This document shows, piece by piece, positions 21,759 to 37,362 of a stretch of 61,259 bases of DNA; position 1 is the first letter of the stretch, and each line of letters starts with the position of its first letter. The notes under the pieces were generated by a model. That model had not been told where the DNA came from. It worked only from the letters and a program-made list of their open reading frames with translations, and ran no database searches. Origin of the DNA: Candidatus Uhrbacteria bacterium CG10_big_fil_rev_8_21_14_0_10_48_11. Its GTDB lineage: Bacteria > Patescibacteriota > Patescibacteriia > GWA2-46-9. The translations under genes and the position numbers were made by a program. The DNA lies in NCBI GenBank assembly GCA_002793855.1, contig PFET01000009.1:87749-149007 (forward strand), written 5' to 3'.

Positions 21759-23849
21759 CTAGCGCAGCACCACAACGTTTATCCCGCCTCGATAGTTTTC
21801 GTTGTAGGCAAAAAACTGACCAATCACATTACCGCGAGAAGTAAAAATGCGTACCTGTGGGCCGCCGCCAGAAAATGGCGCAATGACAATTTCGTCCTTG
21901 CCGTCACTCGTAACATCACCGACAGAGAGCGAAACACCACCGCGGAATACTTCCGGCAAAACGAAGAACTGACCAAGTACTCCGCCACTGCTGTTAAAGA
22001 TGCGTACCTGTGGGCCGCCGCCGGCAACCGGCGCGGTAACAATTTCCGCACGACCATCGCCGTCCAAATCCCCCGCCGCGACGTTGACGCCGCCGCGGTA
22101 CGTCGGGTACGGGTACCACTCGTCAAGCAAATATCCTTTGTCATTAAAAACACGCACCGGCAAATTCTTTAGCGTGGTAGAACTCACAATAATTTCATCT
22201 TTGCCATCACGGTTAACGTCCGCCGTCGCTACACTAAAACCACCACGCAATTTTTTGTCATAGGCAAAAAATTGTAGCTTCACGTTGCCACCGCGGTCGA
22301 ATACTCTAATCTGTGGGCCGCCGTTAGCAGCTGCCGCTACCATAATGCTACCGACGCCATCACCAAAGACATTGCCGGAAGCAACGTTTATCGGTGAGCG
22401 CATTGGTCGGTCAAAGGCGTACCACTGCGACAACGCAGAGCCGGCAGTTGAGAGTATACGTAACCTACCAAGGCCACCAATCCCCTCGCCTTCTACAATG
22501 CGCTGCTCACCGCGAATGATGGCACTAATACGCAAAGTGTTTTCTTCTGGTACCAGACGAGAGTTTTCACTAATAGCAATGCCACCACCACCGACAAAGT
22601 CTCGGTCATACGCCGGCCAGCTATATTGTATACCGCCATCGTTATAGAAAAGCTTTAATGCCGGCTCATACCCACTATGGGCAACGGTAACAATCCGACC
22701 ATTGGTACTTGCTATTGCGACGGGCGGCGTCAAGGCTGGTGAAGCGGCACCCAAAATCGCTCGGCTGGCATTTATCCGTCCGGCGCCGAGCTTGTCGTTA
22801 AACCCACGGTTAGCCACAGAAATATGATCCGCGCTTTTAAGTATGACGTTGGTAATTTGCGCGTTGGTCAGCGCTGGATGCGCCGCCTTAATAAGCGCCG
22901 CCACGCCGGAAACTACCGGTGTCGCAACAGACGTGCCGGACCAACCGCCACCGTAAGCATCGGTTAACCCTTTGGCAAGGTCGTATACTTCGGTGCTATA
23001 AAAGAGCGTCCCCGGTGCAGAAATGTCGACGCAACTGCCATAGTTAGAACTTTTTAATTTCTGATCGAGTGTGTCAGTTGCGGCAACACCCAAAATCCAA
23101 TTTTCGTTTGACCCACTGTCAAAGCACACCGGATAGCGCTGGTCAGCATCGAGGTCGCAGTCGGTACCATTGTTGTTGCCCGCCGCCACCACAACCAAAA
23201 CACCGGCGTCGTAGGCGCGCTTTAAGGACGCGTAGAGTCGGTTACTATATCCGGGACCGACAAAGCTTAAATTGATAACGTTGGCACCGTTATTGACCGC
23301 GTAATCAACTGCGTCCGCAACGATATTGACGTCCCCCTCCCCCTTAGAGTCGAGAACACGCAATGGCATAATGCGCGTGTGCCACGTAACGCCAGCGATA
23401 CCTTCAACGTTGTTTCCTTCTGCCGCAATAATGCCGGAAACAACCGTACCGTGATTTAAGGCGGTCAAACTAAACGGCGGCGTTGCGTCCGGTCGTGGGT
23501 CAGGGCTGTTGGTAACAAAATCCCAGCCATGGACATCGTCAACGTACCCGTTGCCGTCGTTATCTTTACCATCGTGTTCTATTTCACCGGGGTTCGTCAA
23601 AATGTTGTTACGTAAATCCGGATGGTAGATATCTACTCCGGTATCCAGTACCGCAACAACAACGTCCGGGCCGCCGGTTGTCGTCTCCCACGCATTAGGC
23701 GCGCCAATCTGCTGCAGATACCACTGCTGAGGATAATGAATGTCATTCGGGTCAAAAGCGGCTAGTGTCGTTTCTGTAAAAAACGCAAATAGCAGCACTA
23801 CGGTTGTAATGAATTTGCCAGTTTTAAAAAATGAGGGCATGTCTAACAT
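21759..23849 (-). CDS. Subtilisin-like S8 peptidase with C-terminal FG-GAP-like repeats
   Basis: Catalytic triad in VLDTG, HGTVVSG and SGTSVATP. Repeated GGPQ(I/V)R(I/V)F and GD-x-x-x-DG-x-x-EI units follow. TATACT-N7-ATG gives a leaderless start. Confidence 0.92.
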   Translation of the reverse strand: MLDMPSFFKTGKFITTVVLLFAFFTETTLAAFDPNDIHYPQQWYLQQIGAPNAWETTTGGPDVVVAVLDTGVDIYHPDLRNNILTNPGEIEHDGKDNDGNGYVDDVHGWDFVTNSPDPRPDATPPFSLTALNHGTVVSGIIAAEGNNVEGIAGVTWHTRIMPLRVLDSKGEGDVNIVADAVDYAVNNGANVINLSFVGPGYSNRLYASLKRAYDAGVLVVVAAGNNNGTDCDLDADQRYPVCFDSGSNENWILGVAATDTLDQKLKSSNYGSCVDISAPGTLFYSTEVYDLAKGLTDAYGGGWSGTSVATPVVSGVAALIKAAHPALTNAQITNVILKSADHISVANRGFNDKLGAGRINASRAILGAASPALTPPVAIASTNGRIVTVAHSGYEPALKLFYNDGGIQYSWPAYDRDFVGGGGIAISENSRLVPEENTLRISAIIRGEQRIVEGEGIGGLGRLRILSTAGSALSQWYAFDRPMRSPINVASGNVFGDGVGSIMVAAAANGGPQIRVFDRGGNVKLQFFAYDKKLRGGFSVATADVNRDGKDEIIVSSTTLKNLPVRVFNDKGYLLDEWYPYPTYRGGVNVAAGDLDGDGRAEIVTAPVAGGGPQVRIFNSSGGVLGQFFVLPEVFRGGVSLSVGDVTSDGKDEIVIAPFSGGGPQVRIFTSRGNVIGQFFAYNENYRGGINVVVLR

Positions 23850-33982: not shown

Positions 33983-34303
33983 CTAAAGGGCAAAGTCGGC
34001 GGCGTTAAGCTCTTGCCATTCGCCAGAAACATCACGTTCGACCGTGAACACGTGAACAATGTCAGATTCGTCGTATTCGCTCTTGACCTCTGCCGTAGAG
34101 CTCGCCCGCTTACTATAGACACGCTTCTCCCCTATCTTGCGAGGTTGCGAGGTCCACGAGAGCCGCAAACGGCCAACAGGTGAGGTAACAATGTAGCTCT
34201 CTACCGTACCAGGACGACCGACAAGGTCTTCGATATATTTCGAATCTATCTTGCCTTCGTCTTGAAGGCGACCAATTAAATCTTGCCAGCGTTCGTCAGT
34301 CAT
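33983..34303 (-). CDS. Hypothetical protein (106 aa)
   Basis: The start is placed at ATG 34303 (MTDERW), preceded by TATACT-N9. The track ORF is over-extended. Confidence 0.7.
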   Translation of the reverse strand: MTDERWQDLIGRLQDEGKIDSKYIEDLVGRPGTVESYIVTSPVGRLRLSWTSQPRKIGEKRVYSKRASSTAEVKSEYDESDIVHVFTVERDVSGEWQELNAADFAL

Positions 34304-34334: not shown

Positions 34335-34364
34335 TTGACAAAGCGCCCCTTAAAATGGTAAAAC
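34335..34364 (+). promoter_or_regulatory. Candidate sigma70 promoter for the small membrane-ORF array
   Basis: TTGACA (34335-34340), an 18-nt spacer and TAAAAC (34359-34364) with an upstream TG. Confidence 0.4.
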
Positions 34365-34499: not shown

Positions 34500-34733
34500 G
34501 TGATGGCTACGTGCTATGCCATCCTGACATGCTGGCAAATACACCAAGTCTTGGAACGCCCGCCATGCGTGACCGAGATTTATCTGAGTAGGTATGCCTA
34601 CCTGACAAGTCTGGCGGGCCTGCTGACAGGCGTCTGCATGGTACTCTTCCTGGTTCGGCGGGGCTATCTGATCTCGCCTCAACAACATAAACAGAAGCGA
34701 GATGATGAAAATTGTCCCGGTTGGGCCAGTTAG
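34500..34733 (+). CDS. Small membrane protein (array member A)
   Basis: 77 aa with a hydrophobic segment (LTSLAGLLTGVCMVLFLV). The start signal is weak. Confidence 0.4.
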   Translation: MMATCYAILTCWQIHQVLERPPCVTEIYLSRYAYLTSLAGLLTGVCMVLFLVRRGYLISPQQHKQKRDDENCPGWAS

Positions 34734-34960
34734 CTTTAGGTGCCGCACCAAGCGCGACACTCAATGCGCCGCTTACAAGCGGGAGGTTAATAGTAGACAG
34801 AGAGAACTCCGGAAGAAAAAGACACAACCTGCTGGTGACGCGAGCTGGTTTTTTGCGCTACGGTGATGATATTCGTTGTCGCAGTCGCACTGTCCCGTAG
34901 CAAGGTTCGGCATCACCACAACATTTTCGGCGTGCATACGCACGCCGAGGGAGTAAGGAA

Positions 34961-35191
34961 GTGAAACAACCGCCCCAGTGGAAGATAAATAACGCCCGGC
35001 GCGGCATCGAAAGCCCGCTGCTCACTATCGCACTGGTCGTACTGCTGAGCAGTATGGCAGCGCTTTCGATGGCGAAGTGGAACACCCTCGGCTCCGAGGA
35101 AGCGGTTCGCTTCGCCAAACTGGCGCTTGGCATACCTACGTTGCTCATTGCCATCGTCTCTGCCGTTCGGGCAGAGAGAAGGAGGTCATGA
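34961..35191 (+). CDS. Small 2-TM protein (array member B)
   Basis: GTG start after GAGGGAGTAAGGAA, two hydrophobic segments and an ATGA overlap with the next ORF. Confidence 0.6.
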   Translation: MKQPPQWKINNARRGIESPLLTIALVVLLSSMAALSMAKWNTLGSEEAVRFAKLALGIPTLLIAIVSAVRAERRRS

Positions 35192-35427
35192 TGACCAGTC
35201 ATCAATGGGAAGAAATTCCCTACGAAACGAAATTCTCAATTACGTACACCGTCGCGTTCTTCGTGATCGCAGAACTGCTGGTGTGGGCCATCCTTGGATG
35301 GGCGCTCGCTTTCGCGCTCTTCCTCTGTGGTGTTGTTTTGGCGGCCTTGCTCGTTCTCTTTCTGTCGATGGCAGGACTCACGAAGGAAGCGGAAAGGAAT
35401 AAAGATGATATGGACGACGGCGCTTGA
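35188..35427 (+). CDS. Small 2-TM protein (array member C, 79 aa)
   Basis: AGAAGGAGG SD before ATG 35188, an ATGA overlap and a long hydrophobic hairpin. Confidence 0.65.
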   Translation: MMTSHQWEEIPYETKFSITYTVAFFVIAELLVWAILGWALAFALFLCGVVLAALLVLFLSMAGLTKEAERNKDDMDDGA

Positions 35428-35521
35428 AAAGATTCGGGGAGTAGCAACAACAATAGCGTTCGTTTGCGTTTTTGCTGCCCTGTACGTCATTCAACGTTTC
35501 ACTTTGACCAGCAAAAAATGA
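35405..35521 (+). CDS. 1-TM peptide (array member D, 38 aa)
   Basis: GAAAGGA SD before ATG 35405, sequence MIWTTALEKIRGVATTIAFVCVFAALYVIQRFTLTSKK, and an ATGA overlap with the next ORF. Confidence 0.5.
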   Translation: MIWTTALEKIRGVATTIAFVCVFAALYVIQRFTLTSKK

Positions 35522-35739
35522 GGGAACAGAAGATGATGAGGCAAGAAAAAACGGTAAGTTACGGAGGGCGAATGTTGATACTAGCCCCAACCACCGCGGG
35601 CATCGTTGGTGCACTGCTGACGATTCCCTTCTTTGGATGGAGGGCAGCAAGCCTGCTCTTCGTCGGTGGCATCACCGTCGGCCTGACCGCAGCGGTTCTT
35701 CTCGGACTACTCGGAAATAACGAGGAGCACAAGGCATGA
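35518..35739 (+). CDS. Small 2-TM protein (array member E, 73 aa)
   Basis: ATGA overlaps at both ends. It shares GW-x-x-A-x-x-LF-x-x-G with member C. Confidence 0.65.
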   Translation: MREQKMMRQEKTVSYGGRMLILAPTTAGIVGALLTIPFFGWRAASLLFVGGITVGLTAAVLLGLLGNNEEHKA

Positions 35740-35906
35740 GGAGAATTAGGGGACTTCAGTCAAGGGTTGCGCTGTCGGTCAGCGCAGTCTGTTTTCTCGC
35801 TCTGTCCGCGTTCGGCGCGGATGGGCCGAGAGCAGGAATCCATGTGCTCATTTTCTTCGGATTTCTCTTCGCATTGGCGTGGGGCCTCTCGAAGGCAATG
35901 CGCTAG
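35736..35906 (+). CDS. Small 2-TM protein (array member F, 56 aa)
   Basis: Not in the track. GAGGAG SD, ATGA overlap, sequence MRRIRGLQSRVALSVSAVCFLALSAFGADGPRAGIHVLIFFGFLFALAWGLSKAMR. Confidence 0.6.
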   Translation: MRRIRGLQSRVALSVSAVCFLALSAFGADGPRAGIHVLIFFGFLFALAWGLSKAMR

Positions 35907-35915
35907 GGAGAAAGT

Positions 35916-36137
35916 ATGATGAAATCTGTTTTTGTACTGCCGATAGTGGCGGGACTACCAGTGCCTCTCTTGCTTGTTGCTGCACTGCTCGGTGCCTATG
36001 CAGCGCAGAACAGCACGGAGTGGGCAGAGATGCTCCACCTGTGGAGCTTCTGGGGCGCAATTGCTTCTTTCTGTGGGGTGCTTATCTGCGGCCTCTTTGC
36101 TGAAGACATGAGCATAGAGGTGCAGAAGGAGGACTAA
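35916..36137 (+). CDS. Small 2-TM protein (array member G, 73 aa)
   Basis: AGGGAG SD, two hydrophobic segments and a TAATG overlap with the next ORF. Confidence 0.65.
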   Translation: MMKSVFVLPIVAGLPVPLLLVAALLGAYAAQNSTEWAEMLHLWSFWGAIASFCGVLICGLFAEDMSIEVQKED

Positions 36138-36355
36138 TGAAAGAATTTGAAGATCTCACATGGAAGGGGGGGCGCCGCCTCATGAGGCAATGTCTTCTCT
36201 ATGCGGGACTCTTCGCCATCGTAGCCATCTTGGCACTCCCCTTATCGCATGGAGGAGTGAGCATCGTATCTAAAATGGCAACGATGGCGTGCCTGGCATC
36301 GGCGTGGGCGGCCATGGTCTGCCGTTCGATCTGGCCACCGAGGTCACAACGATGA
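36137..36355 (+). CDS. Small 2-TM protein (array member H, 72 aa)
   Basis: AAGGAGG SD, TAATG coupling and two hydrophobic segments. Confidence 0.65.
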   Translation: MKEFEDLTWKGGRRLMRQCLLYAGLFAIVAILALPLSHGGVSIVSKMATMACLASAWAAMVCRSIWPPRSQR

Positions 36356-36385
36356 CCTCGGTGAAACACAAGGAGGACAGTTCGT

Positions 36386-36433
36386 AAAACCGGCGGTGTC
36401 GCAGCTCAAAAAAGAGTTGCACCCGCCGGTTTT
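36386..36433 (+). terminator. Hairpin terminator closing the array
   Basis: Outer stem AAAACCGGCGG ... CCGCCGGTTTT with an inner stem. Confidence 0.7.
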
Positions 36434-36472: not shown

Positions 36473-36504
36473 ACATTCCAACATTCTTGAGAATGTTGGA
36501 ATGT
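36473..36504. repeat. 32-bp palindrome, copy 1
   Basis: ACATTCCAACATTCT-TG-AGAATGTTGGAATGT, with perfect 15-bp arms. Confidence 0.95.
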
Positions 36505-36614
36505 CATTTTTTTAAAATTAATCCATTGACGGCGCAGCTTACAAATGTTAAAAAAAGGTATCCGTTTCCTCCTGTCCGCCCTTGTTATTGCGGAAACAAA
36601 AAAGGAGGTGTGTC

Positions 36615-36863
36615 GTGCACACAAGAGGAAGAAAGGAAAAAATCAAGCGCCAGTCAGTCGTCCTGCGACGGGACGGCTACGACCCCAGCAAAAGAGCGGC
36701 GATTATACTCGGCGGAGTAATCGCCATGTCGATCGTGGGGGTACTGCTGATGCTCTACCCCCATGCGACGACCACGGTTCTCGTCGTGATAATTTTGGCC
36801 GGCCTCGCAACGCGCGTCTTCTGCGCCGTCAGCCGCTCCGGCATCTTCCGTTCGATATCGTAA
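36615..36863 (+). CDS. Small 2-TM protein between palindrome copies 1 and 2 (82 aa)
   Basis: Full SD AAAGGAGGTG before GTG 36615, a basic N-terminus and two TM segments. A 12-bp hairpin follows at 36888-36921. Confidence 0.65.
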   Translation: MHTRGRKEKIKRQSVVLRRDGYDPSKRAAIILGGVIAMSIVGVLLMLYPHATTTVLVVIILAGLATRVFCAVSRSGIFRSIS

Positions 36864-36994
36864 TCGACAGGAAGAGGCAGCCGACAAGGAGGAGCGCAGT
36901 GGTCACCCGCTGCGCTCCTCCCCCCTCTCGTCACTTCTTCACTGCCGAAGTAAAAATTTAGGAAAAAAAATTACCTCACCCCCACCCCAATCAA

Positions 36995-37026
36995 TCATTC
37001 CAACATTCTTGAGAATGTTGGAATGA
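36995..37026. repeat. 32-bp palindrome, copy 2
   Basis: TCATTCCAACATTCT-TG-AGAATGTTGGAATGA has an identical 30-bp core and compensatory T/A ends. It lies 2 nt after the wHTH stop codon. Confidence 0.95.
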
Positions 37027-37330: not shown

Positions 37331-37362
37331 ACATTCCAACATTCTTGAGAATGTTGGAATGT
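37331..37362. repeat. 32-bp palindrome, copy 3 (overlaps the wHTH promoter)
   Basis: Identical to copy 1 and located immediately upstream of the TATACT -10 at 37323-37328. Confidence 0.95.

Follow-up and report, generated by a model that had tools for sequence, protein, structure and literature searches.

A chain of very small membrane-protein genes, very probably a lineage-specific operon, in a slot of changing content on an Uhrbacteria chromosome

What are the very small open reading frames (ORFs) that lie chained to one another beside the RarA gene of a Candidatus Uhrbacteria chromosome, are they genes at all, and how did they come to be there? We addressed these questions in a stretch of 61,259 nucleotides of Candidatus Uhrbacteria bacterium CG10_big_fil_rev_8_21_14_0_10_48_11 (contig PFET01000009.1, positions 87,749 to 149,007), hereafter called the window. 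An original prediction, made from the letters of the sequence, had described a translationally coupled array of about eight tiny membrane proteins at 34500-36433 of the window. Genes B to H (34961-36355) indeed overlap exactly at the junctions that it had listed, and the observation is real and slightly understated. With high confidence, B to H are a genuine lineage-specific operon, accompanied by a separate gene, J; their products are mostly hairpin proteins, and the genes sit in a slot governed by birth and death or by capture and loss. Three features had been missed: the insertion or expansion of the array within a conserved syntenic block, Shine-Dalgarno (SD) signals that are foreign to the way in which the host starts translation, and gene J.

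At the level of sequence comparison, synteny is the decisive result for this reading of the array. In the conserved block, RarA is followed by a gap and then by the genes of a 106-residue protein, a transmembrane (TM) protein, a DUF5656 protein, a PDZ protein, a sigma factor, a DUF5667 protein and a giant surface protein. Lineages differ in the gap only, and the gap genes lie on the strand opposite to RarA in every member of the clade. Uhrbacteria RIFCSPLOWO2_02_FULL_48_12 (stretches L092, L104 and L228; RarA 67% identical) has a gap of 491 bp with one gene for a 72-residue hairpin protein, an AAGGAGG motif and a terminator. A second lineage (L090 and L091; RarA 69%) has a gap of 558 bp with one gene for a 75-residue, single-helix protein and a terminator. 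The third (L087) is 82% identical in RarA, 78% in the 106-residue protein and 74% in the DUF5656 protein; its gap of 1.6 kb holds four small TM genes (90, 64, 73 and 56 residues) that have SD sites and include one ATGA overlap, along with two promoter copies and two terminators. Finally, the gap of the window measures 3.1 kb and carries B to H, J and a gene for an ArsR-like protein. The slot and its promoter are thus kept while the contents differ (1, 1, 4 and 8 genes), which points to a turnover slot for orphan membrane microproteins. This comparison of lineages also bears out the earlier suggestion that members are gained and lost. The comparison of strains that had been proposed alongside it revealed no variability: the array is 100% identical in all assemblies, and the members of the 90% sequence clusters differ only in the choice of start codon.

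Across lineages, the small slot proteins show no similarity beyond marginal scores, though the flanking proteins are 60-82% identical, and the 72-residue protein of L092 is restricted to its own genome. In more distant relatives the RarA strand carries NUDIX and PilT genes, or a QueH-like gene, instead, and small TM ORFs are absent. Within lineages, the slot shows no difference between L092 and L104, and L090 and L091 agree to 99.96%. A step in identity is seen between L092 (5015-6142) and L104 (88-1215), which are about 80% identical in the 3' part of RarA and 100% identical from about position 5400 of L092 through the slot into the 106-residue protein gene; it reflects either a strain recombination breakpoint or a chimeric assembly. 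In L087 (9240-9290, minus strand), a second copy of the TTGACA-N-TGgTAAAAC promoter stands between the second and third small genes, and this promoter seems to have been duplicated together with a cassette.

The host of the array is an Uhrbacteria-like chromosome of the Patescibacteria (candidate phyla radiation, CPR), recovered from groundwater and aquifer metagenomes, and its closest relatives are labelled Candidatus Uhrbacteria or "Patescibacteria group". The neighbours in the window are ordinary chromosomal genes: RarA/MgsA, dihydroorotate dehydrogenase, glycosyltransferases, surface proteins, an extracytoplasmic function (ECF)-type sigma factor, DUF5667, DUF5656 and PDZ proteins and a MacB-type ABC system. 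No integrase, phage or type IV secretion gene was found among the larger window ORFs scanned against Pfam. The array is not a recognisable prophage remnant, as it has no phage gene or match in it and its flanks are core genes that are syntenic in relatives.

Coordinates and signals of the chain, of its transcription signals and of gene J are collected in Table 1. Five members (B, E, F, G and H) have two hydrophobic spans each in hydropathy tables, as expected from the two-helix hairpins described originally. That description does not extend to C, which has one continuous hydrophobic span of 51 residues with GW at its centre and acidic distal tails, or to D, which has a single hydrophobic span or helix. 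The termini of the B hairpin are basic. Several members begin with tandem Met codons, and the helices are rich in Gly and small residues. Of the roughly eight members described, B to H stand; ORF A is a doubtful member that sits in a leader of about 600 nt between the promoter and B and is possibly a decayed copy. At the other end, the chain stops, as had been described, in a stub of 11 codons with an orphan AAGGAGG after which no start codon follows.

Table 1. Positions, in window coordinates, of the array genes, gene J and the associated transcription signals (T2, thymine at codon position 2)
Feature	Position	Strand	Product	Signals and remarks
Candidate array promoter	34335..34364	+		-35 TTGACA at 34335-34340, 18-nt spacer, extended -10 TGgTAAAAC
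ORF A	34500..34733	+	77 aa	doubtful member; without SD; lowest coding score (-0.32); weak T2 phase
Gene B	34961..35191	+	76 aa	GTG start, GGGAGTAAGGA upstream; T2 phase frame 1
Gene C	35188..35427	+	79 aa	AAGGAGGT SD; ATG overlaps the TGA of B as ATGA
Gene D	35405..35521	+	38 aa	GGAAAGGA SD 6 nt upstream; starts 23 nt inside C
Gene E	35518..35739	+	73 aa	hairpin; ATGA overlap with D
Gene F	35736..35906	+	56 aa	hairpin, basic termini; ATGA overlap with E; GAGGAG SD; T2 phase frame 2
Gene G	35916..36137	+	73 aa	hairpin, acidic C-terminal tail; GGGAG SD; 9-nt gap after F
Gene H	36137..36355	+	72 aa	hairpin; AAGGAGG SD 4 nt upstream; TAATG overlap with G; T2 frame 1
Stub I	36352..36387	+	11 codons	ATGA overlap with H; orphan AAGGAGG at 36370-36376
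Intrinsic terminator	36386..36433	+		20-bp stem between A-tract and T-tract
Candidate J promoter	36526..36554	+		TTGACG-17-TGtTAAAAA
Gene J	36615..36863	+	82 aa	AAGGAGGT 5 nt before GTG start; own transcription unit

That these are genuine genes is supported independently of ORF calling and, like the structural description as a whole, can be stated with high confidence. Thymine at codon position 2 follows frames 1, 0, 1, 0, 2, 2 and 1 from B to H and then frame 2 in J, and it switches at the gene junctions; the shift to frame 1 at 35385-35430, for instance, matches D. ORFs on the plus strand cover the array to a fraction of 0.978, which was equalled by 1 of 1000 shuffles. Opposite-strand ORFs (136, 115, 106, 90, 84 and 70 residues) were considered and rejected on their poor scores and lack of a family. 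Gene finders caught three to six of the nine genes and misread J. The call for B is present in the NCBI, JGI and ENA records and only C, E and G are called on the long contig, whereas no gene finder calls D. For E, the callers differ in the start that they choose (73-, 68- and 55-residue forms); the alternative starts at 35533 (68 residues) and 35572 (55 residues) have better SD sites than the 73-residue one, and basic residues lie between them.

The SD sites set the array most clearly apart from its host. SD-like cores in the array number 28 on the plus strand and 4 on the minus strand, compared with 11 +/- 4 in shuffles, and AAGGAGG occurs five times on the plus strand and never on the minus strand, out of 13 occurrences on both strands of the 61-kb window (Poisson P ~1e-6). 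A blind screen of both window strands for SD-preceded hydrophobic ORFs of 30-110 codons returned 15, eight of which are the array chain (Poisson P ~5e-13). When SD sites of at least 5 nt within 20 nt of the start were counted, with 26 ordinary window genes as the host reference, 7 of 8 array genes carried one as against 1 of 26 host genes (Fisher P = 1e-5), so the original statement that most members have SD sites stands. The flanking genes for RarA, the PDZ protein, the sigma factor and the DUF5667 protein have no SD in related genomes either. Several host genes (e.g. those with minus-strand starts at 23849, 32583 and 44194) have a TATACT box 8-10 nt before the ATG; a box so close to the start suggests that host mRNAs may be leaderless or near-leaderless. 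In the array, SD sites are partly formed by Arg, Lys and Glu codons at the end of the upstream gene (AGA AGG AGG; AAG GAG GAC), an arrangement that is typical of coupled genes. Strong SD sites in a genome that is poor in them point to selection for translation or to foreign origin.

The SD contrast is a stronger anomaly than base composition. The pooled G+C content at third codon positions (GC3) is 0.63 for array members, as against a host mean of 0.46, and 3.9% of host 70-codon windows reach 0.60. The small slot ORFs of relatives show a GC3 excess over their flanks as in the array. Nevertheless, GC3 is a weak argument for foreign origin, since hydrophobic coding explains part of the excess. 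Codon scores trained on the host are positive for C (+0.13, the highest), E and G (+0.05, the best of its six frames).

This evidence also bears on a near-neutral explanation, in which the conserved divergent promoter merely transcribes a fast-evolving spacer and the ORFs are functionless proto-genes or decaying genes caught in a snapshot of birth and death. Such a view would accommodate the lack of homologs for C and G, the sub-normal codon scores of most members, the leader with its degraded ORF A, the orphan SD stubs at 36370 and 36886 and the complete turnover of content between close lineages. We consider it unlikely: neutral ORFs would not gather near-perfect, correctly spaced SD sites in an SD-poor genome, nor does neutrality agree with seven consecutive abutting open ORFs that show a clean, frame-specific hydrophobic codon signal, or with a G+C content of the array region above that of host intergenic DNA.

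The change of frame from gene to gene could in principle reflect decay of another kind, that of a single polytopic transporter broken by about six frameshifts into fragments of two helices each. Abutting ORFs in changing frames with about two helices each fit such decay, as does a match of C to the ArsP_1 permease family that stays below threshold (E = 6.8e-4, 19 bits for a cut-off of 32). We regard this as hardly credible. Concatenated B to H match no Pfam family (E up to 10) and no PDB chain, C and G have no relatives, and a start codon is present at every junction, mostly with a well-placed SD. In addition, the window sequence recurs at 100% identity on a contig of 146 kb from ENA, on one of 61 kb from Logan and on short JGI and ENA contigs from other samples, and the frame changes are not sequencing errors, since independent assemblies from several samples give the same sequence. 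Two short contigs (L005 and L006) that end at the array edges were considered as a mobile unit; this was rejected in favour of fragmentation at low coverage (depth 2-7).

One promoter and one terminator appear to enclose B to H. The candidate promoter lies back to back with that of the minus-strand gene for the 106-residue protein (TTGTCA-17-TATACT, 34341-34313), with a common -35 region. The position at 34335 proposed originally was upheld by relatives, as CGTTGACA..TGnTAAAAC recurs at the corresponding position in L087 and, with a less exact match in the alignment, in L090; it did not pass a strict consensus scan, which found the minus-strand partner, as there is no T at position 6 of the -10 element. 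It is the only match to TTGAC-N16-19-TGNTAAAA in the window. The terminator proposed at 36386 is well supported, with a folding energy of -33.1 kcal/mol (z = -7.45; none of 200 shuffles as stable).

Gene J follows downstream. Its candidate promoter has the same architecture as the array promoter and the two promoters of L087, and a hairpin is found downstream of J at 36888-36921. The J protein is a two-helix hairpin with a very basic N-terminal tail. Its T2 phase signal (0.40-0.53) is the strongest in the region, its GC3 is 0.70, and it is called as an 82-residue protein on one ENA contig. Most gene callers instead report an Arg-rich ORF of 138 residues (36545-36961) that has no family match; we rejected it because the J frame is better by SD, T2 phase and GC3. 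Inside the hairpin after J, at about 36886, there is a second orphan AAGGAGG, followed by a GTG at 36898 and an ORF of 20 codons (MVTRCAPPPSRHFFTAEVKI); this region (36886-36960) may be a junction remnant, like stub I. One strain variant has a single-nucleotide polymorphism near 36880, upstream of this second orphan SD (P to L in the 138-residue frame).

Are the proteins known elsewhere? C and G were the members queried individually in the largest protein collections. C matched only itself in a word-seeded search of 5.8 billion proteins and in an exhaustive HMMER search of 1.84 billion representatives; G matched only itself in the word-seeded search of 5.8 billion proteins, and nothing in IMG/VR. 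The array gave no match in GenBank phages, PLSDB plasmids or IMG/VR, its members none in 2.25 Mb of fetched Patescibacteria loci, and Rfam none at its position. No member has a significant match in Pfam, PHROGs, PADLOC or NCBIfam, in agreement with the earlier remark that no known operon type explains the chain. By the PADLOC result, the array is not a defence system of a described type. AlphaFold2 models B as a helix-turn-helix and C as one long helix (pLDDT of 79 in both cases), and these models add little; the B model has no significant fold match (best E of 0.65 in BFVD).

The one match of B, to PHROG 565, annotated as holin (E = 6.5e-4, 20.7 bits), raises the question of whether some of these are membrane-damaging small proteins, either holin-like pore formers or type I-like toxins with some members perhaps serving as antidotes; lysis, attack on a host cell or abortive infection would be their uses. 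Holins are known for their diversity, and many of them are orphans. In size, two helices and charged tails, the present proteins correspond to the class II holin body plan, and the tandem Met starts and the basic residues between the starts of E recall holin dual-start motifs. However, the B match, like that of C to ArsP_1, is at the level expected for hydrophobic queries, that is, at noise level, and the other members match no holin PHROG. Neither fold nor sequence searches matched phage proteins significantly, the larger window ORFs scanned include no phage gene such as an endolysin or spanin, and eight holins in a row are without precedent. We therefore consider a holin or toxin function, in all its variants, very unlikely. 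An array of type I toxin-antitoxin modules was rejected as such: a single promoter serves seven coupled genes, only C and E are marginally similar, and there is no DNA repeat. Such modules call for an antisense promoter, and a consensus scan, the only method applied, found no promoter-like site on the minus strand between 34342 and 37025.

Did the array grow by duplication, as had been suggested for C and E? The shared motif GW-xx-A-xx-LF-xx-G is present in an ungapped alignment of 63 residues with 22% identity. In BLASTP with composition correction, the pair reaches E = 2e-5 when compared alone and 3.5e-4 within a set of 15 proteins, and the similarity exceeds a block-shuffle null that preserves hydropathy (P < 0.001). 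On this alignment E is marginally a candidate paralog of C. The second helix and tail of ORF A are marginally similar to C (E = 1e-3), the other protein pairs are at or near chance similarity, and there are no DNA repeats within the array or between leader and array, and the idea of duplication and divergence has weak support. Recent duplication was rejected, as there is no similarity at the DNA level and the small resemblances are too short to count; among the latter, stub I (CACAAGGAGGAC) resembles the G/H junction (CAGAAGGAGGAC) and its peptide (..KHKEDSS) the end of G (..VQKED). If the array did grow by duplication, this was ancient or was followed by very fast divergence. The 90% cluster of the 55-residue form of E (window 35572-35739) also lists an Arg/Pro-rich ENA protein of 505 residues (P0008) that has no visible similarity to it, and this membership looks like a clustering artefact.

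What, then, might the proteins do? Most would be single helical hairpins of 38-82 residues inserted in the cytoplasmic membrane, probably with both ends in the cytoplasm; this predicted topology follows from the basic residues that flank the helices and from the very short connecting loops. With outer loops of 1-15 residues, almost nothing would be exposed outside. We suggest that each member works on its own in the membrane, as an accessory factor that protects the cell or modulates the membrane. Each would counter a single kind of attack on the membrane, conflict would drive a rapid turnover of the repertoire, and the tight overlaps of B to H would serve compaction and co-expression rather than the stoichiometry of one complex. 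This role is proposed tentatively and at clearly less than even confidence, by analogy with prophage morons and orphan immunity arrays, with which the locus shares a self-contained unit, foreign-looking signals, membrane location, fast turnover and variable number. Structure and protective function taken together, as one statement, come a little short of an even chance.

An alternative places the hairpins in one membrane assembly, as its subunits or modulators: they could build a hetero-oligomeric channel or scaffold of about 14 helices, or be small regulators of the neighbouring envelope operon (the genes from that of the 106-residue protein to DUF5667). Five junctions have stop-start overlaps, the classical way to make subunits in equal amounts, which would suit such an assembly, as would the helices rich in Gly and small residues, the neighbouring membrane and envelope-signalling proteins, and the divergent arrangement with the envelope operon, which is kept in all four lineages with a common promoter region. 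Subunits are normally co-conserved, however, and the numbers here are 1, 1, 4 and 8 with no member recognisably common to the lineages; the genes of the window (with J) and of L087 are, moreover, divided over separate promoters and terminators. A single assembly is thus improbable.

Several points weigh against a genuine array of individually acting protective proteins. Translational coupling classically marks the subunits of a complex and so favours the assembly just discussed. B, D, F, H and J have negative codon scores, lower than is normal for host genes, and host membrane-protein genes also have a somewhat raised GC3 (0.41-0.58), which weakens the case for foreign origin. PADLOC gives zero matches for any member, the larger ORFs scanned in the 61-kb window include no toxin, phage, secretion or transporter gene that could be a partner of the array, and donors of captured genes, expected among 5.8 billion proteins, were not seen. 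No RNA run contains the array stretch, and neither homologs nor strain variation, which would reveal purifying selection, were found.

The comparison with described systems shows where the protective reading draws its strength. Prophage morons and superinfection-exclusion genes likewise form a self-contained unit of promoter, genes and terminator between conserved genes, have signals and composition unlike their surroundings, encode small orphan membrane proteins and turn over fast. They differ in number, one or two genes compared with eight, and in context: the flanks of the array are core chromosomal genes in conserved order with no prophage, and the array has no phage protein match. Orphan or class II bacteriocin immunity arrays and acquired interbacterial-defence islands are likewise tandem sets of small helical membrane proteins with little mutual similarity and variable copy number. 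Unlike them, the array has no bacteriocin gene, C39-peptidase ABC exporter or toxin gene near it, the only ABC/HlyD genes nearby being a MacB-type set 7-11 kb away, and it matches no known immunity family in Pfam, NCBIfam or PADLOC. Class II holin or lysis cassettes resemble the array in their proteins of 56-82 residues with two TM helices and charged termini, in overlapping genes and in tandem or alternative starts, but the array has seven or eight members and no endolysin or phage context.

A parallel from the CPR is an array of four to six small secreted proteins beside type IV secretion genes in Saccharibacteria and other CPR, described as unique to reduced genomes (McLean et al. 2020, PMC7427843). 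Those proteins have N-terminal signal peptides and VirB4, VirB6 and VirB2 neighbours (PMC7427843), whereas the present ones have charged N-terminal tails followed by hairpins, and no VirB homolog was found among the larger window ORFs scanned. Bacterial ORFan microproteins, which include proposed de novo genes with transmembrane helices, are also short, hydrophobic, taxonomically restricted and located in formerly intergenic positions, as outlined in an overview of the field (PMC12315717). Such genes mostly occur singly and dispersed; the present eight form a chain, with strong SD sites, a conserved promoter and the graded series 1, 1, 4, 8.

A further idea, which we find rather doubtful, is that the interval between RarA and the 106-residue protein gene is a dedicated "nursery" or landing pad for membrane microprotein genes. 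Its conserved promoter and terminators would let new genes arise or be captured, gain strong SD sites in a genome otherwise poor in them and then be lost again, so quickly that lineages with flanking proteins 60-82% identical have no member in common. If so, the series 1, 1, 4, 8 would be a natural time-course of the birth and death of microprotein genes, and a symbiotic CPR bacterium would possess a hypervariable repertoire of membrane proteins.

Two other features of the region deserve mention. The 106-residue protein (33983-34303, minus strand) belongs to a family conserved across Parcubacteria-like genomes (homologs L007-L107), the gene of which is usually upstream of those for the TM protein and DUF5656. 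Its invariant residues include W6, P42, G44 and W96, it has no Pfam, NCBIfam or PHROG match, and the longest ORF (158 residues) overextends its start.

The second is a perfect palindrome of 30 nt, CATTCCAACATTCTTGAGAATGTTGGAATG, present at 36474-36503, 36996-37025 and 37332-37361, which are its only copies in the window. Two copies flank the ArsR-like winged helix-turn-helix gene, and one overlaps the predicted promoter of that gene. Sequencing depth in one metagenome run is about 5600 for the palindrome, compared with 14.7 for its flanks. Exact copies of its 26-nt core are present in at least 120 stretches that span many Patescibacteria classes (L108-L227), several of which hold pairs 317-379 bp apart. 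An ArsR-like gene, 40-68% identical, adjoins the palindrome in 18 of the first 80 of these stretches. The palindrome probably serves a widely conserved CPR regulator as operator, or acts as a bidirectional terminator, or both, and no match to the string was found in the literature searched. It is absent from the promoter of B to H, and one copy ends 22 nt upstream of the -35 element of J. A link between palindrome and small membrane genes was considered and rejected: only 2 of 147 flanking small ORFs in the 120 listed stretches have two hydrophobic spans, and none is array-like.

Overall, the locus is best described as a real, unusual form of lineage-specific cassette of small membrane proteins. 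What makes it interesting is the conserved turnover slot with its own promoter, together with the SD anomaly, rather than any demonstrated function. In bacterial genomes, annotation is poorest for small membrane proteins, CPR genomes are full of unexplained genes, and it is debated whether bacterial orphan genes originate by capture, by extreme divergence or by birth from non-coding DNA. To this debate the locus offers a conserved frame, made of promoter and flanks, whose contents differ wholly between related lineages and vary in number; the SD sites, in a genome poor in them, provide a built-in sign of selection for translation. Should the proteins protect the cell or mediate interaction with a host, an episymbiotic lineage would have in them a hypervariable repertoire, at the surface or in the membrane, of a new kind.

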